Assembly: GCA_903887275.1 (NCBI GenBank)
Contig: CAISPD010000179.1
Coordinates: 16,912-80,911 of the forward strand
Direction of reading: 5' to 3'
Source: an uncultured Mucilaginibacter sp.
Lineage (GTDB): Bacteria; Bacteroidota; Bacteroidia; Sphingobacteriales; Sphingobacteriaceae
Length of the DNA stretch: 64,000 nt
In this document: positions 3,030-14,264 of the stretch, one piece after another
Layout of the letters: the number at the start of each line of letters is the position of its first letter
Position numbering within the stretch: the first letter of the stretch is position 1
Translations under genes and position numbers: made by a program
The notes under the pieces: generated by a model
Databases searched by the model: none
What the model was told of the DNA's origin: nothing
Seen by the model: only the letters and a program-made list of their open reading frames with translations

Positions 3030-4350
3030 AGACCACCAACATATAGCCCGGATAAAAAAATACAACAGCGGCCAGCTGGACGTGCGCGCCATGCATCAAC
3101 TTGAGAGGGAAGCACTGGATGATCCATTCCTTGCAGATGCGCTTGAAGGATATCAATCGGCAGTTCCCGGGCAGGAGGCAAACCTTGCAGAGCTGCAGCA
3201 GCGCCTGCAATTGAGGGTTGAACCCAAAGTGCGACAAATGATCGCCTGGCGACAGTTGGCTATAGCAGCATCGATCCTGATCTTTTTTGGTATTTGTACA
3301 TGGTATTTCCTTCCCACCAAAAAAGGGAATACCCTACAGCTGGTTGAAAATATAAAGCCTGCAGCACAGGATAAGCAATCCATAACGCAAACGCCGGCTG
3401 CATCAACTGATGCTACTGATGCAAAGCCTTCGGCCAGTCAGTCAATGCCCAATAACACGGCATTTGCTCCAGCCCTGAAAGCTGAAAAAGGTTTAGCAGG
3501 AGACAAAAATATATCAACTGCTTATTCAAATCCGGTGCAGGCAGATACAGCAGTTTTAGGAGCTAAATCTGCAAGCCCTTTAAATACCGACGAACAATTA
3601 AAAAGCCCATCTTTTGCTGGCGTCGCTAATGCAAAATCAATTGATAAACAACAATCCACTGCATCATTGAACGAAGTGGAGGTAGCTCAGGCTGATGCCA
3701 GCGCCCGGAAAAAGGCTGTACCACAGGTTGCTGCACAATCAAATAAAGCATCCCGTCAGGAAACGCTAATACAAAGCAAAGTTGATGGTGTTGTTGTAAC
3801 ACCTGCAAATAAAACGCTCAGCGGCACCGTTACCGGCTTGAATGGCATGCCCCTGCCCGGTGCAGTTGTAAAACTGGCGGGCAGTAATTTTGGCGTAATA
3901 ACTGATGAGAAGGGTAGGTTTGTGATGCACGACGTGCCCGAAAAGGATAATATTACGGTTGGATACATTGGGTATAGTCAGAAACAGATCAGGGTAAATG
4001 GCGAAGATTCGGTCAATGTATCCCTGTCGCCTGCTTCGCATGCTAACGACTTGCGCAATACTGGTTCTATGGACTCCCATAGTACTACGGATGCACATCC
4101 CAGCGCTGGCTGGAAAGCACTTGAAAATTACCTTGCAAAAAACGCCAGCTCAGCTGATGGCCAAACCGGAAAGGTTAATCTTTCATTCTCAGTTGATGCT
4201 CAGGGGAATCTCAGTAATTTTAAAATTCTCAAAAGCCTGAGCAATGCAGCAGATCAAAAAGCCATAGACCTGCTGGTTCATGGACCTGGTTGGATAGGTA
4301 ATGCCGATAGCAAGGTGCATGAAGTTAAGCTAACGGTAGAGTTCAGATAG
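3022..4350 (+). CDS. Putative anti-sigma factor (N-terminal helical domain, single TM, carboxypeptidase-regulatory-like domain, TonB C-terminal-like domain)
   Basis: GTG start overlaps sigma stop; LEREALDDPFLADALEG; TM LAIAASILIFFGICTWYF; LSGTVTG..PLPGAVV; C-terminal GKVNLSFSVDAQG. Confidence 0.7.
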   Translation: MRKDHQHIARIKKYNSGQLDVRAMHQLEREALDDPFLADALEGYQSAVPGQEANLAELQQRLQLRVEPKVRQMIAWRQLAIAASILIFFGICTWYFLPTKKGNTLQLVENIKPAAQDKQSITQTPAASTDATDAKPSASQSMPNNTAFAPALKAEKGLAGDKNISTAYSNPVQADTAVLGAKSASPLNTDEQLKSPSFAGVANAKSIDKQQSTASLNEVEVAQADASARKKAVPQVAAQSNKASRQETLIQSKVDGVVVTPANKTLSGTVTGLNGMPLPGAVVKLAGSNFGVITDEKGRFVMHDVPEKDNITVGYIGYSQKQIRVNGEDSVNVSLSPASHANDLRNTGSMDSHSTTDAHPSAGWKALENYLAKNASSADGQTGKVNLSFSVDAQGNLSNFKILKSLSNAADQKAIDLLVHGPGWIGNADSKVHEVKLTVEFR

Positions 4351-4415
4351 CGGAATCTGGTATTGTCTTAACCTGGCAACAGTTGTTAAAACCTTAAAAT
4401 GGTACAGCGATCTTA

Positions 4416-5423
4416 TTAAACCAGGCGCAATAGCGCGAAAACGCCAGCAGCTATTAATGCTGAAACCGGGATGGTTATTATCCATGCCCAGATCAGGTTA
4501 ACAGTAACACCCCAGCGTACTGCCGATAAGCGCTTGGTTAGCCCGACACCGATAATAGATCCAGTAATGGTATGTGTAGTAGATACCGGAATGCCAAAGT
4601 ATTGCGTAAAAAATAAGGTGATCGCACCGGCAGTTTCGGCACTAACACCTTCCAGCGGTGTTATTTTGGTAATTCGCGAGCCCATGGTTTTAACAATTTT
4701 CCAACCACCAGATAAAGTACCAAGGGCAATAGCTGAATAGCAGGCCAACGGTATCCAGTTAGGCATCATGGCACCAGAGCCAATCACTTTTGCAGCAATA
4801 AGAGCAACGTAAATAATACCCATTACTTTTTGAGCATCATTGCCACCGTGTGCGTAGCTAAGCAGGGCCGATGATACTAATTGCATGCGTTTAAACCATT
4901 TCTCGGCGGTTGCAGGTCGCGAGTTTTTACTGAGGTGAAGCACTATTATAGTAACGATATAAGCTACTATGAGCCCTATAAGCGGGGCCAATACGATATA
5001 GGCGATGGTGGTAAGCACTAGTTTTAAATTGATAGCCGTTATACCATTAGCGCCCATATAGATAGCGTTGGTGATACCTGCACCAGCAAAGCCACCAATA
5101 AGGGTATGTGACGAACTGGAAGGAATACCAAACCACCAGGTGATCAGATTCCAGGTAATTGCTGCTATTAATCCGGCTAATAGTACATGCAGGGTTACAA
5201 AATGCTCGTTAACGATTTTTGATACGGTTTTGGCTACATTATGCTCTTTAACAAAAAAGAAAACAATAAAGTTGAAGGTTGCAGCCCAAAGAACCGCCTG
5301 AAAAGGTGTAAGTACCTTAGTTGAAACAATGGTTGCTATAGAGTTTGCCGCATCATGAAAACCATTGGTATAATCAAACAATAGTGCCAGGCAAATTACG
5401 AGTACGAGGGTGCTTGTTACCAT
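4416..5423 (-). CDS. pit: PiT-family inorganic phosphate transporter
   Basis: Both PiT signatures GFHDAANS and GGNDAQK; PVSTTH. Confidence 0.93.
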   Translation of the reverse strand: MVTSTLVLVICLALLFDYTNGFHDAANSIATIVSTKVLTPFQAVLWAATFNFIVFFFVKEHNVAKTVSKIVNEHFVTLHVLLAGLIAAITWNLITWWFGIPSSSSHTLIGGFAGAGITNAIYMGANGITAINLKLVLTTIAYIVLAPLIGLIVAYIVTIIVLHLSKNSRPATAEKWFKRMQLVSSALLSYAHGGNDAQKVMGIIYVALIAAKVIGSGAMMPNWIPLACYSAIALGTLSGGWKIVKTMGSRITKITPLEGVSAETAGAITLFFTQYFGIPVSTTHTITGSIIGVGLTKRLSAVRWGVTVNLIWAWIITIPVSALIAAGVFALLRLV

Positions 5424-5432
5424 GAAATCAGA

Positions 5433-6083
5433 TCAGGCGTTTTTAACTAAAATTGACTCCATTACATTTGCTGCATCTTCGCAACGGTCGGTTGCAGTTT
5501 CAAGCGCGGCATAGATTTCTTTGTATTTGATCAGCCTGATGGCGTCCGTCTCATACAAAAACAAGTCGGCTACGGCACGATCAAAAACATAGTCGGCCTG
5601 GTTTTCTACGCTGTTGATGCGAATACATGAATCAGCGATAGCACGTACGTTTCTGATATCCTTTAGCTCGCGGATGGCTTTTTCCAGGTCGAGGCTGGCC
5701 TGTAATATCAATTCTGATAATTTGCGAATATGCTCGTTTAGGTCGTCGATGCGGTAAAGCAGCATGCGGTTGGCTGCGCCCTGAATATTATCTGCAACAT
5801 CATCAATAGCTGTTGCCAGTGCGTGAATATCTTCGCGGTCAAACGGAGTGATAAAATTTTTCCCAAGTTCAAGGTATATCTGATGGGTAATTTCGTCGCC
5901 TTTATTCTCCAGTTTGTCAATGTGTTTATAAAGCTCTTCACGCGTTCCGGCGTTAGTTGAATTAACGGCATCAACCAAGCTTGTGGCCATCACAACTACA
6001 TTGTTTGATGCTTGTTCAAACAAAGGAAAAAATATTTTTTTGTCCTTAGGTACAAAATACTGGAAGATGCTATTCAGTGACAT
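5433..6083 (-). CDS. DUF47 (PhoU-like) phosphate transport regulator
   Basis: LENKGDEITH, TPFDREDI, LETATDRCEDAANV; directly upstream of pit. Confidence 0.9.
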   Translation of the reverse strand: MSLNSIFQYFVPKDKKIFFPLFEQASNNVVVMATSLVDAVNSTNAGTREELYKHIDKLENKGDEITHQIYLELGKNFITPFDREDIHALATAIDDVADNIQGAANRMLLYRIDDLNEHIRKLSELILQASLDLEKAIRELKDIRNVRAIADSCIRINSVENQADYVFDRAVADLFLYETDAIRLIKYKEIYAALETATDRCEDAANVMESILVKNA

Positions 6084-6130
6084 AATTGAAAAATGGAAGG
6101 TCGGTTAATATTCCGTTTGTTAAATTTTTG

Positions 6131-6166
6131 CAAAGTTAATGTTTCCAATGTTAAGTTAATGTTAAC
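6131..6166 (-). promoter_or_regulatory. DUF47-pit promoter with tandem TTAACAT (11-bp period) box
   Basis: Minus strand GTTAACATTAACTTAACATTG (6166-6146), 7 nt gap, then -7 element TAACTTTG (6138-6131). Confidence 0.65.
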
Positions 6167-7226
6167 TCTTTAACACCGGAATAGGCGGGAATGGTATTCC
6201 TTGTTTAGCTTTTTGCAGCGTAAATCCGAAGGTTGAGCCCAGTCCCTCGGTGCTGCGTACATTAATAGTTTGCTGATGTGCTTCAATAATATGTTTAACG
6301 ATGGCAAGCCCAAGTCCGGAGCCGCCGATCTGTCTTGAACGGCTGGTGTCAGTTCTGAAAAAGCGTTCAAAAAGGCGGGGAAGGTATTTTTCTTCAATTC
6401 CGATACCATCATCCGTCACCTCTACTAAAACCTGATCATGCAGTTCAAACAAACTTACCGACGTATTGCCTTCTTCTTTTCCGTATTTGAACGAATTGTC
6501 GATCAGATTGACCAATACCTGCCGGATTTTTTCCCTGTCGGCATTTACCAGGATAGGTTCATCATATTTTTGTTTGAAAACCAATTTGATATGGTGGTCC
6601 GCTGCCTTCATTTCCAGCGATTCAAACACCTCTTTGATCAGGTCATTGATCTTAAATTTGGTATAGTTAACAGGGATCTCGCCGGTTTCCAGCTTCGATA
6701 TTTCATCCAGGTCTTTAATCAGGTAACTTAGCCTGTCAACGTTTTTAGATGCTTTATCCAAAAACTGCCTTGCCATATCGGTATCTTCAAAATCATCATC
6801 TACTATCGCATCGATATAGCCCTGAATAGCGAAGAGTGGCGTTTTAAATTCGTGGGAAATATTAGAAAGAAAATCCCGCCTGAATTTTTCCTGTTTGCGC
6901 AGATCGTCAATTTCTGTCTTTTTTTGTCTGGCCCATTCAGTTACTTCCTGCTGCACGTCATTAATTGGGTCGGCACTAACTTGCTCACCCAGGGCATCGC
7001 GCAGGTCGCGGCCCAGTTTAAGGTTATGGATCAACTTATAAATTATTTTGATCTTGGAGTAGATATACTTTTCGAGCAGCACATAAAAAGTAACAAAACT
7101 AATAGCGAGCGTTATAAAAAAGGTAACGCCAACATCATACCAGCTATGCTTAAAATAAAAATTTACTGCTGAAACCGTAATCGCTACGGCTGCCGCGTTT
7201 ATAAATACCAGGACCCGTAATTTCAT
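6162..7226 (-). CDS. PhoR-like sensor histidine kinase (no adjacent response regulator)
   Basis: Two N-terminal TMs, H-box SHEFKTP, N/G1/G2 boxes (NLIDN, DDGIGI, GSGLGL); ATG 7226 chosen within track ORF 6162..7253. Confidence 0.88.
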   Translation of the reverse strand: MKLRVLVFINAAAVAITVSAVNFYFKHSWYDVGVTFFITLAISFVTFYVLLEKYIYSKIKIIYKLIHNLKLGRDLRDALGEQVSADPINDVQQEVTEWARQKKTEIDDLRKQEKFRRDFLSNISHEFKTPLFAIQGYIDAIVDDDFEDTDMARQFLDKASKNVDRLSYLIKDLDEISKLETGEIPVNYTKFKINDLIKEVFESLEMKAADHHIKLVFKQKYDEPILVNADREKIRQVLVNLIDNSFKYGKEEGNTSVSLFELHDQVLVEVTDDGIGIEEKYLPRLFERFFRTDTSRSRQIGGSGLGLAIVKHIIEAHQQTINVRSTEGLGSTFGFTLQKAKQGIPFPPIPVLKS

Positions 7227-7326
7227 AACCGTAAAGTTACGATTTGCAGGCAATTACAGCTCAAACAAAGCCTTTGCTAATATTAAATTATGGTTAATTA
7301 TTTACAGGGCCGAACAGGCCTGACCC

Positions 7327-7864
7327 TCACCGGGTGGTTGTAAGGTCTATTGCAATGGTAACAGTGTTTGACATCACCAGGCTATGGCCCCCCAACCCCG
7401 TAATCGGTTCGTTCAATTTGAAATTCACCTTTAAACTCGCTGATCGAGCCGGTTTCAGTATAAGTAAAAGGTATAGTAACGGTATTGGTTTTGTCTTTGA
7501 TCGTCAGGCTGAAAGTGCCGGAGTACTTATTGCCACCAAGATGTTTGATCGCAATAGATTTTATGGAGATCGATGGATATTTGCTAACGTCAAAATAGCT
7601 ATCACTTTTCAGATGGTCGTTACGTGTACCATTATCGGTATCTATCGTATTGGTTTCAACCGATGCTGTTATTGTACTGCCTGCAAGATTAGTTGGATCG
7701 AATTTAATGTCGCCTTTAAATCCGGCAAGCGTACCATCAACGGTGATGCCCAGATTTTTTATATGAAACACTACAGATGATTTGGTTACCGCCTGAGATT
7801 TAACCTGCGCAAAGCAAAAAGCATTGAATAATACAAGAAGTAATACCGGCAATAACTTTTTCAT
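7327..7864 (-). pseudogene. yceI: YceI-family protein, frameshifted near the C-terminus (G6 tract 7388-7393)
   Basis: Track ORF ends DYGVGGP*; removing one G gives DYGVGGHSLVMSNTVTIAIDLTTTR* ending 7327, which looks like the expected final beta strand. Confidence 0.75.
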
Positions 7865-7973
7865 CAGCTAAATATAATTAAGCAATTTGGTAATATGACG
7901 AAAATGCGCCCGGATTATTACAAAATGCCCGGAAATTAAATTGTATTATAATTGAAAATAAAAAGCTTAAAAG

Positions 7974-9284
7974 TCAGAACTCCACGTGCGCCCGCAAACC
8001 AAATACATTTACTGGTCCACGGTCTGCATTATAAGCCGGATGAAGGATAAACTGGTAATCGGGAGAAAGCCAGATTTTTTTCTGGAAGGCGTTGATCTTG
8101 TAATAGAGCTCGGCTATAAGTTCCGTCGAGTAATTAAGCTGACCGTCGCCAATAATAAAACCATAGCCGCCTGCCGCCAGATAAGCTCTGTGATCTGCTG
8201 AAAGTCCGTTGGCTATAAATGCAAGTCCCAATTCGTCGTCCGCCCGTTTCCAGGAGTTGCCTTTAAGCACAGCGCCGAACGAAAAAGAACGGTCAATCTC
8301 GGTAAAAAACCAGGTTTCCGTATGTCCATCGTTATAACTTGCTTTTGCGAAAACACCGAAGTCTCTGCTGAGGTATTGCTCAGCATTTATTCCAAATCCA
8401 TATTTATGCCTGCCGTAGTGCTGCGTGCTGTCAATATCAGGTGCCGAAGGATTTTGCGCCAATGCCAATTTGTAATTACCAAACTTGCCATTGTTCAGAA
8501 AGGTAAGTATCCTGAAAGCGCCTTTATTGCCGCCTATAATATATCGCTTTTCAAACTCGAGTGTTTGGGTATTGGCATCGGCTATTTTGGCATCCCAAAC
8601 AGATTGATTGGCCTGGGTTGTAACGAGGGTTAGTGCAAAACGTAATGTCCAGTCGGGCTGTCCAAGTTCGGCGGTTGCGCCAAGAACGTAACCACGGGTA
8701 TTGGCAGGGTAGTCCCAGGCCCCATTGTCCATTAATGCCCAATTCATGAATTGGCTTCGCGGATCGTGACTCAGGCTATTGTTGTCGAAAAAGTCGGCCA
8801 TGCCAAACTTGCCGATCACGAGCGAGAAGTACCGTTTGCTTTTTAGCCCGGCGAGTTGATTGATATCATCCTCGATCGTGTCTTTTTCGGTACCCCATTC
8901 AAAGGTTTGTTTAAAGTAAAGACGTGCAATGTAGATCTTGTTCTGTACTCCGCCTACCCTGAAAGTTTCACCATTCGGAAATCCGGCTACACCCAGCGTT
9001 TGACTTAAACCTGCGCCGCCCGAGATCTCCGGATTAAAATAGGCTTCGGCACCTTTCCATAGTCGTGTGCCGCCAAAAAGTGTAGAAGTGATAGACGATT
9101 GTGTTTCATCTTTTACAGATAAGCTGTTTTTACCCGAATACGGAGCAATTATTGCAGGCTTATATTGGGTTATTATGGTTTGCTGAAAATGAAGGTTGCT
9201 GCGCTGGTGCTTTAAGGTATCCTGGGCAATTACGCAGTTCAATAAGGCAATCAGAAGTATAAATGTAAAAGTATATTTTTTCAT
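7974..9284 (-). CDS. OprB-like (carbohydrate porin family) outer-membrane beta-barrel
   Basis: Signal peptide; GAWDYPANTRGY; C-terminal NADRGPVNVFGLRAHVEF ending in Phe. Confidence 0.75.
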   Translation of the reverse strand: MKKYTFTFILLIALLNCVIAQDTLKHQRSNLHFQQTIITQYKPAIIAPYSGKNSLSVKDETQSSITSTLFGGTRLWKGAEAYFNPEISGGAGLSQTLGVAGFPNGETFRVGGVQNKIYIARLYFKQTFEWGTEKDTIEDDINQLAGLKSKRYFSLVIGKFGMADFFDNNSLSHDPRSQFMNWALMDNGAWDYPANTRGYVLGATAELGQPDWTLRFALTLVTTQANQSVWDAKIADANTQTLEFEKRYIIGGNKGAFRILTFLNNGKFGNYKLALAQNPSAPDIDSTQHYGRHKYGFGINAEQYLSRDFGVFAKASYNDGHTETWFFTEIDRSFSFGAVLKGNSWKRADDELGLAFIANGLSADHRAYLAAGGYGFIIGDGQLNYSTELIAELYYKINAFQKKIWLSPDYQFILHPAYNADRGPVNVFGLRAHVEF

Positions 9285-9293
9285 AAAACGATG

Positions 9294-9328
9294 TAAAAGT
9301 AGTCTGGCAACATTAAGTTGATGTTAAC
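9294..9328 (-). promoter_or_regulatory. Porin internal promoter with the same 21-bp box as DUF47-pit
   Basis: Minus GTTAACATCAACTTAATGTTG (9328-9308; 18/21 identical to the pit box), 6 nt gap, then TACTTTTA (-7-like). Confidence 0.5.
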
Positions 9329-9403
9329 GGGCAATAGGTAAGGTTGATGCCGGACCCGATGAACAGACTGCAAACTTACGGCTTGCCCGGGATTACGAAT
9401 GTC

Positions 9404-12121
9404 TTAAAGCCACTGATCAAATTTTTTAATGAACCACGTTTTAACTGCCTGTGTAAGCAAACAATAACACAGCAAAATACCTAGCAGCCAGGGGAAAAAA
9501 GCAAAAGGCAAGGCTTGCATTTTAAAGGCTGCAGCCAGCGGCGAAAACGGTATGAAAATGCCAATGGCCATAATTGCCGATGTTAAAGCAACTACGGGCG
9601 CCGTAGCCCAGCTTTGTATAAATGGTATTTTACGGGTGCGGATCATATGAACGATCAATGTTTGGGATAGCAAGCTTTCTACAAACCAGCCTGTTTGGAA
9701 AAAGGTTTGATGTTCGGGCGAATTTGCTTTGAATATGAACCACATCACTGCAAATGTTGCATAGTCAAATACCGAACTGATGGGGCCAACAAACATCATA
9801 AATTTGCTGATACCCCCTGCGTCCCATTTGCGGGGTGTAACAATATAATCCTCGTCCATAAAATCCCATGGGATGGATATCTGCGACACATCATATAAAA
9901 GGTTATTGATCAGGATCTGTATCGGAAGCATAGGTAAAAATGGCAGCAAAGCACTGGCCCCCAGCATACTGAACATATTGCCAAAATTACTGCTGGCGGT
10001 CATTTTGATGTATTTGATGATATTGCCGAATGTGCGGCGGCCATAGATCACTCCTTTACGCAGTACCATCAGATCTTTTTCAAGCAGAATTATATCAGCG
10101 CTTTCTTTGGCAATATCGACTGCTGTATCTACCGAAATACCCACGTCAGCATCCCGTAGCGCTGCCGCATCATTAATTCCATCGCCCATAAATCCTACGG
10201 TATGCCCTTTAGCCTGCAATACTTTTACAACCCGCGATTTTTGCAAGGGACTGAGTTTTGCCAGAATACTGATATCGTCTATCCGGCGGGCCAATTCTTC
10301 ATCACTCATGTCTTCCAGCTCCTTGCCCAGCAGGATATTGTTAATCGGTATGCCTACATCCTTGCATATCTTTTTGGTTACAACCTCGTTATCGCCGGTT
10401 AAAACTTTAATTGAAATGCCCAGGCGGCGCAATGCCTCAATGGAAGGTTTAGCAGAGGGCTTAGCCGGATCTAAAAAGCCAATAAAGCCAGTCAGGATCA
10501 TATTGCATTCATCAGCAACTGAATAGTTTAACGGGCGCTCTTCATATTCCTTAATAGCCACAATCAGCACCCGCAAACCTTCCTCATTTAATTTAGACGA
10601 TGTTTTCAAAATGGCCTGCCGCATCTTTTCATCCATCGGGATCACGTCGTCGGTGTCTATCTGCAAACTATTATCCTCGCCCGGATCAAAAGCAAAGCTG
10701 CATAGGTCCAGCATTTCTTCTACCGCACCTTTACAAATAAGCAGGTGTTTGTGATTTTTTTCTTCCAATATCACCGACATTCGCCTGCGTTGAAAATCGA
10801 AGGGGATCTCATCTACTTTTTTATAGGATTCGCCTTCCTTCAGGCAGGAGTGAAACTCGACATGCTCCAATACAGCAAGGTCAAGCAAATTTTTTAAGCC
10901 GGTTTGGTGATAGCTATTGAGGTAGGCCCATTTCATTACTTCGCTATCTTCCAGGCCATATACGTTCAAATGCCGTTCGAGTACAATTTTGTCCATCGTT
11001 AACGTGCCCGTTTTATCGGTACACAGTATGTCCATCGCACCGATATTCTGAATAGCATTCAGCCTTTTGACAACAACCTTGCGTTTCGACATGTTAACCG
11101 CTCCTTTAGCCAGGTTGGCGGTTACAATCATTGGCAACATTTCGGGAGTTAGTCCAACGGCGATGGAGATACCGAAAAGAAATGCCTCCAGCCAATTGTG
11201 TTTGGTAAGCCCGTTGATCAAAAACACCAGCGGCACCATAACCAGCATAAAGCGTATGAGTAACCAGCTTACACTATTAACGCCTTTATCAAAACTGGTT
11301 TCGGCCCGTTTGCCAACCAATGATTTGGAAAGAGAACCAAAATAGGTATCGCCACCAGTATTTACGACAATAGCCTGCGCTGTACCACTTACCACGTTGG
11401 TGCCCATAAAGCAAACATTATTGAGTTCAAGGGGCGATTTTTTGCTAGCGCCACGATCAGCAGAATCTGTTTTTTCAACCGGTAATGCTTCGCCGGTCAA
11501 TATTGCCTGGCTTACAAATAAGTCTTTTGACTGAAGGATACGGACATCCGCTGGGATCATATCTCCGGCCGACAATAAAATAAGGTCGCCGGAAACTAAT
11601 TTTTTGATATCGATCTCCTGTTTATCCTGCCCTTCCCTTACCACAGTAGCGGTAGTTTTAACCATCGACTTCAGCTTTTCTGCAGCCTGGTTACTCCTGA
11701 ATTCCTGGATAAAACGCAGCATGGCACTTAAGAACACCATGATGCTGATTACAATAACCGTAGTATAATCCCTATCGGCAGGTGCTTTAATAATGATTAC
11801 GTCAGTAATGGAAGAAATAACGGCCAGTACGATCAATACCCCAATAAAAGGGTTTAAAAAGGCTTCAAAAAACTGGATATACCATTTAGGTGCTTTTTCA
11901 TGGGCTACTTCATTGGGCCCATAGGTGCTCAATCTTTCCCTGACTTCATCTGCTGTAAGACCTTTATCGCTGGTTTCTAACTGTTGCAGAAAATCTGCTT
12001 TACTACTCGCTGATGCTCGTTTTATCTTTAACGTTGAAGCGCCGTCAGATTCATTGGATGAATTGCCGTTCTTTTTGGCCAGAGTTTTATAAACTGAATT
12101 GAAATTTTCTCTTTTAAGCAT
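9404..12121 (-). CDS. mgtA: Mg2+-importing P-type ATPase
   Basis: DKTGT, TGEA, PEMLP, GDGINDA; MTASSNFGNMFS and NLLYD typical of MgtA/B. Confidence 0.95.
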   Translation of the reverse strand: MLKRENFNSVYKTLAKKNGNSSNESDGASTLKIKRASASSKADFLQQLETSDKGLTADEVRERLSTYGPNEVAHEKAPKWYIQFFEAFLNPFIGVLIVLAVISSITDVIIIKAPADRDYTTVIVISIMVFLSAMLRFIQEFRSNQAAEKLKSMVKTTATVVREGQDKQEIDIKKLVSGDLILLSAGDMIPADVRILQSKDLFVSQAILTGEALPVEKTDSADRGASKKSPLELNNVCFMGTNVVSGTAQAIVVNTGGDTYFGSLSKSLVGKRAETSFDKGVNSVSWLLIRFMLVMVPLVFLINGLTKHNWLEAFLFGISIAVGLTPEMLPMIVTANLAKGAVNMSKRKVVVKRLNAIQNIGAMDILCTDKTGTLTMDKIVLERHLNVYGLEDSEVMKWAYLNSYHQTGLKNLLDLAVLEHVEFHSCLKEGESYKKVDEIPFDFQRRRMSVILEEKNHKHLLICKGAVEEMLDLCSFAFDPGEDNSLQIDTDDVIPMDEKMRQAILKTSSKLNEEGLRVLIVAIKEYEERPLNYSVADECNMILTGFIGFLDPAKPSAKPSIEALRRLGISIKVLTGDNEVVTKKICKDVGIPINNILLGKELEDMSDEELARRIDDISILAKLSPLQKSRVVKVLQAKGHTVGFMGDGINDAAALRDADVGISVDTAVDIAKESADIILLEKDLMVLRKGVIYGRRTFGNIIKYIKMTASSNFGNMFSMLGASALLPFLPMLPIQILINNLLYDVSQISIPWDFMDEDYIVTPRKWDAGGISKFMMFVGPISSVFDYATFAVMWFIFKANSPEHQTFFQTGWFVESLLSQTLIVHMIRTRKIPFIQSWATAPVVALTSAIMAIGIFIPFSPLAAAFKMQALPFAFFPWLLGILLCYCLLTQAVKTWFIKKFDQWL

Positions 12122-12173
12122 CGTAGTATGATTTGCCCTGTTTTACCAGGCGGCTTAAAAGCAGACGATCCGG

Positions 12174-12224
12174 TTAGCAGGAGGTTAGAAGTTCTTTTAA
12201 AGTGCTACTCGGACCGGTATCCAT
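12174..12224 (-). CDS. Candidate mgtA leader peptide MDTGPSSTLKELLTSC (16 aa)
   Basis: ATG 12224 after an A-rich context, TAA 12176-12174; lies between the promoter and mgtA ATG. Confidence 0.5.
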   Translation of the reverse strand: MDTGPSSTLKELLTSC

Positions 12225-12246
12225 TTTTTTAATTTTTAATTTGACG

Positions 12247-12284
12247 CAAAAATAAGATTTAATTTAATGCAATGGTATTGCATT
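12247..12284 (-). promoter_or_regulatory. mgtA promoter (-7 TATTTTTG 12254-12247) with overlapping perfect palindrome AATGCAAT-GGT-ATTGCATT (12266-12284)
   Basis: Directly visible 8-3-8 inverted repeat over the -33 region. Confidence 0.6.
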
Positions 12285-12716
12285 GATCCTGCATTTGTCA
12301 CATATTCCTTTTACCACCAATTTCATTTCGGCAGCAGAGAAACCGGCAGGTAATAAAACCTCCGGGATTCTTGAATTTGGCAGACAGAATGTCTCTTTGC
12401 AAGTGCCGCAATAAAAGTGTACATGCAGGTCGTGATGCTCCTTTTTATCGCATTCCTCAGGGCATAGCGCGTACTTGGGTACACCCGTTCCGTCTTCTAT
12501 GGTATGAATCAGGCCGTTTTGCTCAAAGGTCTTTAACGTGCGATAAATGGTTGTACGATCTGCAGGCAGTAATAATTTCTCCAGATCACTCAGGCTAAGA
12601 GCATGCTGATGTTTTAAAAGCTTGTCTAAAACCAAAACCCGCATTGCGGTAGGGTTAATTTTTTTGATGGCCAGCAATTGCGTCGTTTTACCGCTTATTT
12701 TTTCCGCTATGTCCAT
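12264..12716 (-). CDS. Fur-family transcriptional regulator
   Basis: DRTTIYRTLKTF HTH, HxHFYCxxC and CDKC metal sites; ATG 12716 (track GTG 12719). Confidence 0.88.
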   Translation of the reverse strand: MDIAEKISGKTTQLLAIKKINPTAMRVLVLDKLLKHQHALSLSDLEKLLLPADRTTIYRTLKTFEQNGLIHTIEDGTGVPKYALCPEECDKKEHHDLHVHFYCGTCKETFCLPNSRIPEVLLPAGFSAAEMKLVVKGICDKCRINAIPLH

Positions 12717-12717
12717 C

Positions 12718-12749
12718 ACCGTATTACCATTGCTTTCGGGGCAAATCTA
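12718..12749 (-). promoter_or_regulatory. Fur-like gene promoter (-7 TAGATTTG) with a degenerate copy of the palindrome
   Basis: Minus AAAGCAATGGTAATACGGT (12736-12718), 14/19 match to the mgtA palindrome, just downstream of the -7 element at 12749-12742. Confidence 0.5.
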
Positions 12750-13400
12750 GGGTAAATTATCTACTTCATCATAAAACTGCTTAAGATACAGTTCCATAAA
12801 ATGGTGCCGCTGTTCGGCAAGAATTTTGCCGGTTGGGGTATTCATCTTATCTTTTAATAAGAGTAATTTTTCATAAAAATGATTGATACTGGGCGCTTGA
12901 GATGATTTATACACCTCTTTGCTCATATTTAAATTAGGGCTGATCTCGGGGTTATAAATTTCGCGCCCTTTAAATCCTCCATAACTAAATGCCCTTGCTA
13001 TCCCAATAGCACCAATGGCATCCAGCCGGTCAGCATCCTGCACAATAGCTAATTCATTTGATTGAAAACTAATCTTATCAAAGCCCGATTTAAAAGATAT
13101 ATTTCTGATGATCTGCTGAACATGCTCAATGATCTCGGGTGCAATAGCCATTGATGTTAAAAATTCTCCAGCCAACGCCGGTCCCAGTGTTTCATCTCCA
13201 CCGTGAAACTTACTGTCGGCAATGTCGTGCAGTAAAGCAGCCAGTTCAACAACCAGTAGATCACAAGGCTCTGATTTGGCTATGTGCCGGGCATTGGTTA
13301 AAACCCGCTGTATGTGCCACCAATCATGCCCACCTTCGGCATGCTGTAATGTTGCCTTAACAAAAGAGACTGCTTTACTGATGATTTCGTTGTGTTCCAT
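12747..13400 (-). CDS. HD-domain phosphohydrolase (YedJ-like)
   Basis: GHDWWHI, ALLHDIAD, QDADRLDAIGAIGIAR, NHFYEKL. Confidence 0.9.
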   Translation of the reverse strand: MEHNEIISKAVSFVKATLQHAEGGHDWWHIQRVLTNARHIAKSEPCDLLVVELAALLHDIADSKFHGGDETLGPALAGEFLTSMAIAPEIIEHVQQIIRNISFKSGFDKISFQSNELAIVQDADRLDAIGAIGIARAFSYGGFKGREIYNPEISPNLNMSKEVYKSSQAPSINHFYEKLLLLKDKMNTPTGKILAEQRHHFMELYLKQFYDEVDNLP

Positions 13401-13445
13401 ACGGCTATAAAATTAGATGTATTATAGCTGTATTGCATAACTTCA

Positions 13446-13694
13446 TTACACTTTTTGCAGAACCTGCATCCGTTCAGCACCGATCAGCAGGACTGGATCA
13501 GTCTCGAGAATTTCTGCAATATGCAGTAGTCTTTCAACGGTTATGCGAGTATATCCCAATTCGATCTTACTATAGGCATTTTGCGATATGCGCAATTTGG
13601 CTGCCAGGTATTCCTGGGTATAATTCCGGTGTTCCCGGGTTTTTCTGATGTTAGCAGCTACTTGTTCGATCCTGGTATTAAGTGCATCCTTCAT
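13446..13694 (-). CDS. XRE-family HTH regulator
   Basis: YTQEYLAAKLRISQNAYSKIELG; ATG 13694 within track ORF. Confidence 0.85.
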   Translation of the reverse strand: MKDALNTRIEQVAANIRKTREHRNYTQEYLAAKLRISQNAYSKIELGYTRITVERLLHIAEILETDPVLLIGAERMQVLQKV

Positions 13695-13769
13695 AATTGA
13701 AATGTTTAACTGGGTATTTAAGATCAATTACGCAAGGAAGCGCTATACGGTTTGTTTTTGCAGTATTAT

Positions 13770-14264
13770 TTATGGTTCGTTGCTGTAAACTAAGGTTACT
13801 GCGGGCAATAAAGTGGCAAGGTTAAGCGGGATTTGATCAGTACCGGTAATAGGTTTGTGCTTTAAATAAAAGTTGTACAACGCCGCCTGATCGTCTTTGC
13901 TGTCAGCACCCTTGCCATGAAACCTGATCTGGAAAGGGATGACAAAATCGTGTAATTTTTCTTTATCAGGAATGATCCACTTATGATTGGTCTTTTTCAT
14001 GGCATCAATAACAGGTTGTACCAGGATGGCATCATCAGCGTAGTAGATCACCAGATTTTTCAGGCTACCCTGATCATCGGCAGAAAACTTGAATATTACC
14101 AGGCCATTTGCTTTACTAAGTATTATGCCCTGCGAAACCTTTAAGCTATCGCGAAAAAATTGAGTCATTGCTGTTTTGCCTCCCTGAAATGGGAAAGCAA
14201 GCTGCTGTTGAGCGACAGCATGGGTTGCCATAAAAAGTGTAGCTATTAATAAGATTTTTCTCAT
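13770..14264 (-). CDS. Exported hypothetical protein, TonB C-terminal-like
   Basis: Signal peptide MRKILLIATLFMATHAVA; FPFQGGKTAM...GLVIFKFSADDQG. Confidence 0.6.
   Translation of the reverse strand: MRKILLIATLFMATHAVAQQQLAFPFQGGKTAMTQFFRDSLKVSQGIILSKANGLVIFKFSADDQGSLKNLVIYYADDAILVQPVIDAMKKTNHKWIIPDKEKLHDFVIPFQIRFHGKGADSKDDQAALYNFYLKHKPITGTDQIPLNLATLLPAVTLVYSNEP

Follow-up and report, generated by a model that had tools for sequence, protein, structure and literature searches.

Putative Pho boxes of the direct-repeat kind ahead of DUF47-pit and an OprB-type porin gene in a Mucilaginibacter genome

The stretch of DNA considered here, called the window below (64,000 nucleotides (nt), positions 16912-80911 of contig C179), belongs to the genome of an uncultured Mucilaginibacter sp. 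which comprises 3.9 Mb in 277 contigs and is 99% complete. Its closest public relatives are Mucilaginibacter metagenome-assembled genomes (MAGs) and isolates. The window contains two copies of a 21-bp element resembling the operators of phosphate regulators (Pho boxes), one ahead of an operon encoding a DUF47 protein and a Pit-type phosphate transporter, the other ahead of an outer-membrane porin gene; a PhoR-like histidine kinase gene lies between them. In order of transcription, these genes and elements are as follows.

9404-12121, minus strand: mgtA-type P-type ATPase gene, upstream of the porin and outside the element itself
9308-9328, minus strand: putative Pho box 2 (core 18-mer 9310-9327), TTAACAT-N4-TTAATGT
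9294-9301, minus strand: -7-like element of the predicted porin promoter, TACTTTTA, matching five of the six specified positions of TAnnTTTG, 8 nt past the box
7974-9284, minus strand: OprB-family outer-membrane porin (Pfam PF04966, 141 bits against a cut-off of 22.9, residues 59-436)
7382-7864, minus strand: YceI-like gene (Pfam PF04264), between porin and kinase
7280-7297, minus strand: third box, TTAACCA-N4-TTAATAT, some 40 nt ahead of the kinase -7 box
7232-7239, minus strand: putative -7 box of the kinase gene, conserved, TAACTTTA
6162-7226, minus strand: PhoR-like histidine kinase (Pfam HisKA and HATPase_c), with no response regulator adjoining
6146-6166, minus strand: putative Pho box 1 (core 18-mer 6148-6165), a perfect TTAACAT pair with an 11-bp period
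6131-6138, minus strand: predicted -7 element of the DUF47-pit operon, TAACTTTG, an exact TAnnTTTG, 9 nt past the second repeat
5433-6083, minus strand: DUF47 (PhoU_div) gene (Pfam PF01865, 90 bits), first gene of the presumptively regulated operon
4416-5423, minus strand: Pit-type inorganic phosphate transporter (Pfam PF01384 PHO4, 300 bits)

An earlier note on this sequence had described the two 21-mers (6166-6146 and 9328-9308, minus strand) as alike at 18 of 21 positions, and a reading of the minus strand agrees, three positions differing. The geometry it gave is likewise correct. Site 1 overlaps the stop codon of the kinase, the TAA at 6164-6162 falling within the first half-site; the -7 elements lie 7 nt (site 1) and 6 nt (site 2) downstream of the 21-mers; and the half-sites form direct repeats of 11-bp period with the core TTAACAT-N4-TTAACAT. 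TAnnTTTG is the -7 element of Bacteroidetes primary-sigma promoters, situated a short distance ahead of the transcription start. Box 2 combines a perfect first repeat with TTAATGT as the second. A third, degenerate repeat extends box 1 to the -7 box and is not conserved in relatives. Counted from the end of the 18-bp box, the -7 box follows after 8-9 nt at the pit and porin promoters as well as at the pst and ppk promoters found elsewhere in the genome (below), and no TTG-type -33 element is present at any of the four. With this spacing to the -7 octamer, the box spans about -40 to -23, where a -33 element belongs.

When up to three mismatches were allowed to a degenerate 21-mer pattern, sites 1 and 2 were its only matches in the window, where shuffling gives an expectation of 0.04. 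They are also the two best matches in the whole genome, the next best having three to four mismatches and falling mostly within genes. Because the full 21-mer has no further close genomic copies, the shorter 18-bp core was used for the scans that follow. Loose half-site pairs carrying three mismatches are unenriched on their own in the window (18 against 16.5 expected); the motif signal resides in good copies and their context.

Intergenic DNA of the genome was scanned for at least 12 of the 14 core matches together with a -7 box (at least five of six positions) within 5-10 nt; genes outside the window are crude open reading frame calls. Five composite sites emerged, with a spacing of 8-9 nt in all.

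Window: DUF47-pit, box and -7 element
Contig C105: a 454-aa outer-membrane protein, followed by pstS-pstC-pstA-pstB-phoU
Contig C262: ppk (polyphosphate kinase)
Window: OprB porin
Contig C89: an orphan promoter

Sixty first-order Markov simulations of the intergenic DNA gave 0.47 +/- 0.69 such sites and never more than 3, which corresponds to an enrichment of about 10-fold. The presence of the motif at phosphate genes had been singled out beforehand as the point on which the proposal could fail; the motif proved to be enriched there, the genome-wide scan finding both pst and the polyphosphate kinase gene ppk. About 20 genera of the family retain a box of equal geometry ahead of ppk (here and below, relatives' genomes are non-independent samples). 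The pstS type of this genome and its upstream outer-membrane protein were found, box included, in one of the 40 genomes sampled family-wide; with a single other sampled genome, the pst promoter offers no broad footprint. The PhoA, PhoD and PhoX families have no match in this nearly complete genome.

A second line of evidence comes from a weight matrix trained solely on the DUF47, ppk and regulator sites of relatives, excluding the window's genome and all porin sites. Its consensus is TTAA(C/T)A(T/A), twice. Ranking the 120-nt upstream regions of the 2143 genes having their own upstream gap gave the following order.

Rank 1: DUF47-pit
Rank 2: PhoB-like regulator
Rank 3: ppk
Rank 4: TonB-dependent-type barrel
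Rank 5: PF04185 phosphoesterase, with 4-5 tandem repeats upstream
Rank 6: alpha/beta hydrolase
Rank 7: the window's PhoR-like kinase
Rank 8: OlsF-like aminolipid (phosphorus-free-lipid) synthase, adjoining the pst operon
Rank 9: pst-phoU operon (pstSCAB-phoU)
Rank 10: SNF2 helicase
Rank 11: OprB porin (top 0.5%)
Rank 14: second DUF47 gene, divergent from the pst operon

Phosphorus-related promoters thus make up eight of the top 14 of 2143 upstream regions, and five of them (phosphoesterase, kinase, OlsF-like, pst-phoU and second DUF47) stood outside the training set. Box 1 scores 25.9 bits, the top of the genome, and box 2 scores 16.9 bits.

Conservation of box 1 was followed in 80 loci, each encoding an orthologue of the kinase at 69-97% identity. 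The order kinase-DUF47-pit is maintained in nearly all of them, and the box 1 core occurs at the equivalent place in 78 (Mucilaginibacter, Pedobacter, Daejeonella and Hufsiella), matching at least 13 of 14 positions and followed 8-9 nt downstream by TAnnTTT(G/A). One of the two remaining loci ends at a contig edge; the other has no DUF47 gene. Coding constraint on the kinase was considered as the reason for this conservation and ruled out: in Pedobacter, Daejeonella, Hufsiella and further Sphingobacteriaceae the kinase stops about 20 nt sooner and the flanks are unrelated, so that box 1, perfect in sequence, is fully intergenic. Nor does any known riboswitch or small RNA account for the conservation, since Rfam matched nothing in positions 4000-14000 of the window.

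Both components of a putative phosphate-sensing pair appear to carry boxes of their own. The earlier note had mentioned a weaker version of the element at 7280-7297, upstream of the kinase. The site is indeed there, with three mismatches in 14 core positions; the description as weaker did not stand, since the site is strong by the weight matrix, with 18.6 bits and the 12th rank among 7.8 million genome positions. Most Mucilaginibacter relatives keep it ahead of their kinase gene. It is not promoter-proximal, and the boxes of the regulator gene likewise lie further upstream than those at pit, porin, pst and ppk. The -7 box of the kinase stops 5 nt short of its ATG, and the kinase mRNA would consequently be leaderless or nearly so.

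The kinase is the genome's best PhoR-like match. Its top NCBIfam matches are PnpS and PhoR, both below cut-off (232.9 against a cut-off of 334.2 for PhoR TIGR02966; 167.2 against 500 for the Bacteroides-type NF053855), and the alignment to PhoR is limited to the catalytic core, residues ~105-337, Pfam seeing only HisKA and HATPase_c. The genome's best PhoB-like protein is encoded on contig C62, between a thioredoxin-like gene and a gene whose translation reads like a pseudouridine synthase. Its top two matches are PhoB TIGR02154 (232.6, cut-off 296.2) and NF053854 (221.3, cut-off 270); as these scores fall below the equivalog cut-offs, we call it PhoB-like. All 41 sampled genomes have a single copy of its gene, with 65-92% identity (at least 82% in 37 of the 40 relatives), and three conserved 11-bp repeats lie upstream of it in 30 genera. 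Kinase and regulator genes are unlinked, in a genome encoding seven OmpR-type regulators; their co-conservation and the content of the regulon suggest that the two form a pair. The boxes at both genes suggest autoregulation.

Taken together, these observations make it likely that the boxes are operators of a PhoB/PhoP-type response regulator, placing DUF47-pit and the porin under phosphate control. The separate positions of the kinase and regulator genes and their NCBIfam scores below the PhoR/PhoB cut-offs weigh against this reading. From the sequence, geometry, conservation and regulon enrichment established above, we infer the identity of the binding protein, its activating role and the phosphate response. 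Under phosphate scarcity, the window's PhoR-like kinase would phosphorylate the unlinked PhoB-like regulator. A head-to-tail dimer of the regulator would then bind the box, in which two (sometimes more) 7-bp repeats of the form TTAA(C/T)A(T/A) lie 11 bp apart on one helix face, and recruit RNA polymerase, the box substituting for the missing -33 element. DUF47-pit would be switched on in this way and, in this lineage, so would an internal OprB-type porin promoter, independently of mgtA. The boxes at the kinase and regulator genes would render the system autoregulatory. That box 1 is a functional Pho operator appears very probable; for box 2 the same assignment is reasonably probable, and the porin is likely a lineage-specific member of the regulon.

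The assignment of box 2 requires a closer look at the porin promoter. The genes preceding mgtA are, in order of transcription:

13446-13727, minus strand: XRE-type helix-turn-helix gene, first in the transcription order of the region
12747-13400, minus strand: HD-domain protein gene, downstream of the XRE-type gene
12264-12719, minus strand: Fur-family protein gene, between the HD-domain gene and mgtA

The signal peptide of the porin begins at the first ATG, and the -7 box ends 9 nt ahead of it. With a transcription start predicted at ~9286-9289, hardly any leader would remain on the porin mRNA. When 14 porin promoters are aligned (porin identity 74-84%), only the columns TTAAcAt, cTTAA and tAttTTtgC are conserved, and TTAAYA-N5-TTAA with exactly 8 nt to the -7 box is present in 12 of these 14, in the midst of unrelated upstream flanks. 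The gene order porin-YceI-kinase is kept in many relatives. By contrast, mgtA stands ahead of the porin only in the two nearest relatives; others have a Fur-like gene or other DNA there. Since the promoter is kept in relatives lacking mgtA, it would predate the insertion of mgtA and be independent of it. The proposal of the earlier note that the porin has its own promoter in the phosphate regulon, separate from mgtA, is thereby supported, as it is by the rank of the porin upstream region (11 of 2143).

The principal alternative grants that box 1 is a true Pho operator and sets box 2 outside the Pho regulon, either as the site of another OmpR-family regulator or as a decaying or fortuitous AT-rich look-alike, the porin being expressed mainly by read-through from mgtA (in relatives, from the HD or Fur-like genes). 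We consider this unlikely, although several observations favour it, weigh against phosphate control of the porin, or do both. The second repeat of box 2 is weak, relatives retain only its TTAA, and their sites score between 3.9 and 19.8 bits. The motif is AT-rich, and promoters of genes with no phosphate connection (SNF2 helicase, alpha/beta hydrolase and an extracytoplasmic function (ECF) sigma factor) score level with that of the porin. The conserved neighbours of the porin are metal-related (HD, Fur-like and mgtA, and a VIT1-family gene in the relative locus L019). In more distant Mucilaginibacter, the porin lies directly behind the HD-domain gene and has no recurring box of at least 12/14 core positions. 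The porin has no match to the phosphate-selective OprO/P family PF07396. The seven OmpR-type regulators of the genome offer other candidates for binding. Finally, a terminator scan found no site between mgtA and the porin (nor between the kinase and DUF47), so that read-through may add to porin expression.

Against this alternative stand the 18/21 identity of box 2 to box 1 and its perfect first repeat, an 8-nt distance to the -7 box as at the pst and ppk promoters, and an upstream region within the top 0.5% of those ranked. Furthermore, box and spacing are kept while the flanks diverge, in relatives without mgtA as well, and there is no -33 element to permit activator-independent initiation. 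We thus retain the reading of box 2 as a Pho operator, with the qualification that farther relatives lack the box and that phosphate control of the porin would be confined to a single subclade.

Three further observations concern this promoter region. Box 2 may also be written as an inverted repeat (AACAT-N7-ATGTT); this was ruled out, as relatives do not keep the inverted repeat. Set against the relative locus L019 (1293-3943), mgtA (9404-12121) looks inserted: the order in other Mucilaginibacter is HD, Fur-like, porin, and only the two nearest MAGs share an mgtA between the last two. In a number of relatives (L015, L017-L024, L027 and L066), two 14-bp palindromes of the TTAGACnnGTCTAA type lie 60-110 nt upstream of the porin start, just upstream of the box; they resemble an operator for another regulator, a dimeric one, for which the adjoining Fur-family protein is a possibility. 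The pair is absent from the window.

A second alternative accepts the boxes as real PhoB-type operators and reverses their sign, so that DUF47-pit, and perhaps the porin, would be repressed and the low-affinity Pit transporter shut down in phosphate limitation. The Sinorhizobium meliloti orfA-pit operon is reportedly repressed under phosphate limitation. The box overlaps the core promoter (-40 to -23), and the third degenerate repeat of box 1 reaches the -7 box. Bacteroidetes promoters can also function with a weak -33 element, an activator not being strictly needed. We nonetheless judge repression improbable. The third repeat is not conserved, and the geometry at pit, porin and ppk equals that at pst-phoU, an operon which, to our knowledge, is PhoB-activated wherever it has been studied. 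In addition, with this pstS type in only one of 40 sampled family genomes, most phosphate probably enters through Pit, and its shutdown under starvation is unlikely. For these two reasons, shared geometry and scarcity of pstS, activation of DUF47-pit appears quite likely. Most of the family probably relies on Pho-controlled DUF47-Pit rather than on Pst.

The remaining alternative, that the likeness of the 21-mers is a chance product of AT-rich intergenic DNA, can draw on the base composition of the motif and on the chance-level frequency of three-mismatch half-site pairs in the window, and is highly improbable given two pattern matches against 0.04 expected, family-wide conservation of box 1 and the roughly 10-fold enrichment of the composite architecture at phosphate genes.

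Judged by its sequence, the element reads as a Pho operator with direct repeats, a known kind that is defined here for the first time in Sphingobacteriaceae. The PhoB box of Escherichia coli is CTGTCAT-N4-CTGTCAT and ends about 10 bp upstream of the -10 hexamer. Both boxes are 18 bp long, consist of two 7-bp direct repeats around an AT-rich 4-bp spacer and are sited at the -35 position, the arrangement known from PhoB-activated promoters in E. coli. The regulons resemble one another in being autoregulated, at least as predicted here, and in including pst-phoU and a porin (PhoE in E. coli). The repeat differs (TTAACAT here, CTGTCAT there), kinase and regulator are encoded at separate places here, the porin belongs to the OprB type rather than to the PhoE or OprP type, and the regulator falls below the PhoB equivalog cut-offs.

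The PhoP boxes of Bacillus subtilis are nearer in sequence. They are TT(A/T/C)ACA repeats with 11-bp periodicity (Eder et al. 1999, as cited in PMC11870197); the TTAACA half-site, the direct orientation and the 11-bp period are shared, and the consensus is equal. Arrays ranging from two repeats to four or more, found here at the phosphoesterase and the regulator gene, and boxes at pst and other phosphorus genes are further points of likeness. However, most promoters here make do with two repeats, against the four typical of Bacillus, and the present host is a bacteroidote in which the putative box takes the place of the -33 element in a -7 TAnnTTTG context.

Porins have been predicted as members of cyanobacterial Pho regulons (PMC1906773). 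These, like Pseudomonas OprP/OprO, share with the present case an outer-membrane channel gene having a Pho-type operator beside phosphate-uptake genes. In contrast to OprP/OprO, the porin in the window belongs to PF04966 (OprB) rather than PF07396, and its membership of the regulon appears limited to a subclade. Within the Bacteroidota, the PHO regulon of Flavobacterium johnsoniae takes in lipid remodelling as well as TonB-dependent transporters of the outer membrane (Lidbury et al. 2021, PMC8115612), and pstS occurs in only 26 of 102 Flavobacterium strains (PMC8115612). The present genome also has boxes at a TonB-dependent-type barrel and an OlsF-like gene, as would befit a Bacteroidota phosphate response; phoBR are adjacent in F. 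johnsoniae and their counterparts here are unlinked. A term search of PMC8115612 found neither Pho box nor promoter mentioned, and we found no description of a Bacteroidota Pho operator in the searchable literature.

In another Bacteroidota family (L186-L191), TTAACAATGGCTTAACAT precedes a TAATTTTG box by about 18 nt at DUF47 genes, a position more distant from the -7 box, by one helical turn, than that of the Sphingobacteriaceae element. The remaining families of a phylum-wide DUF47 sample were without a clear element. We advance only tentatively, as a doubtful extension, the possibility that a Bacillus-like box of the TTAACA type is the general phosphate operator of Bacteroidota, served by an unlinked PhoR-like kinase and PhoB-like regulator, and that it has here captured an OprB porin beside mgtA, coordinating outer-membrane entry of (metal-)phosphate, Pit-mediated metal-phosphate symport and Mg2+ import.

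As the kind of system is a textbook one, its presence here is a modest surprise. Nevertheless, a defined box makes it possible to read phosphate regulons directly from the genomes and MAGs of Sphingobacteriaceae that live in soil or with plants. The predicted regulon comprises Pit, Pst, polyphosphate kinase, a phosphoesterase, a phosphorus-free-lipid synthase, a TonB-type barrel and the OprB porin, the last offering a concrete case of what would be recruitment of a porin into a Pho regulon within a single subclade.

Several promoters of the predicted regulon have features of their own. The pst-phoU operon (C105:14949-17483) opens with the 454-aa outer-membrane-like protein, for which no Pfam or NCBIfam match, PF07396 included, was found; the control region it shares with the second DUF47 gene contains half-sites in both orientations. 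Boxes on both strands (19.4 and 20.4 bits) also lie between the divergent genes for a 1109-aa TonB-dependent-type barrel and a dihydrolipoyl-dehydrogenase-like protein (C192:8541-8684). The largest box array of the genome, 4-5 tandem repeats of 11-bp period, is upstream of a gene for an 899-aa protein combining a beta-propeller with the PF04185 phosphoesterase (C140:4630-4776).

The orphan promoter (C89:15330-15480, minus strand) combines ATAACAT-N4-TTTACAT with an exact TACCTTTG after a 9-nt spacer. The non-coding DNA that follows, about 100 nt long, is situated between convergent genes and closes in a strong hairpin and T-run. The transcript is a candidate phosphate-responsive small RNA; the region has no match in Rfam, and similar DNA is present in only three of 15 genomes of the same genus. 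Lastly, the ppk leaders of many genera contain, directly past the -7 box and ~20-60 nt upstream of the start, a conserved GC-rich hairpin of the GTCCCGG...CCGGGAC type followed by a T-run, which looks like a terminator or attenuator.

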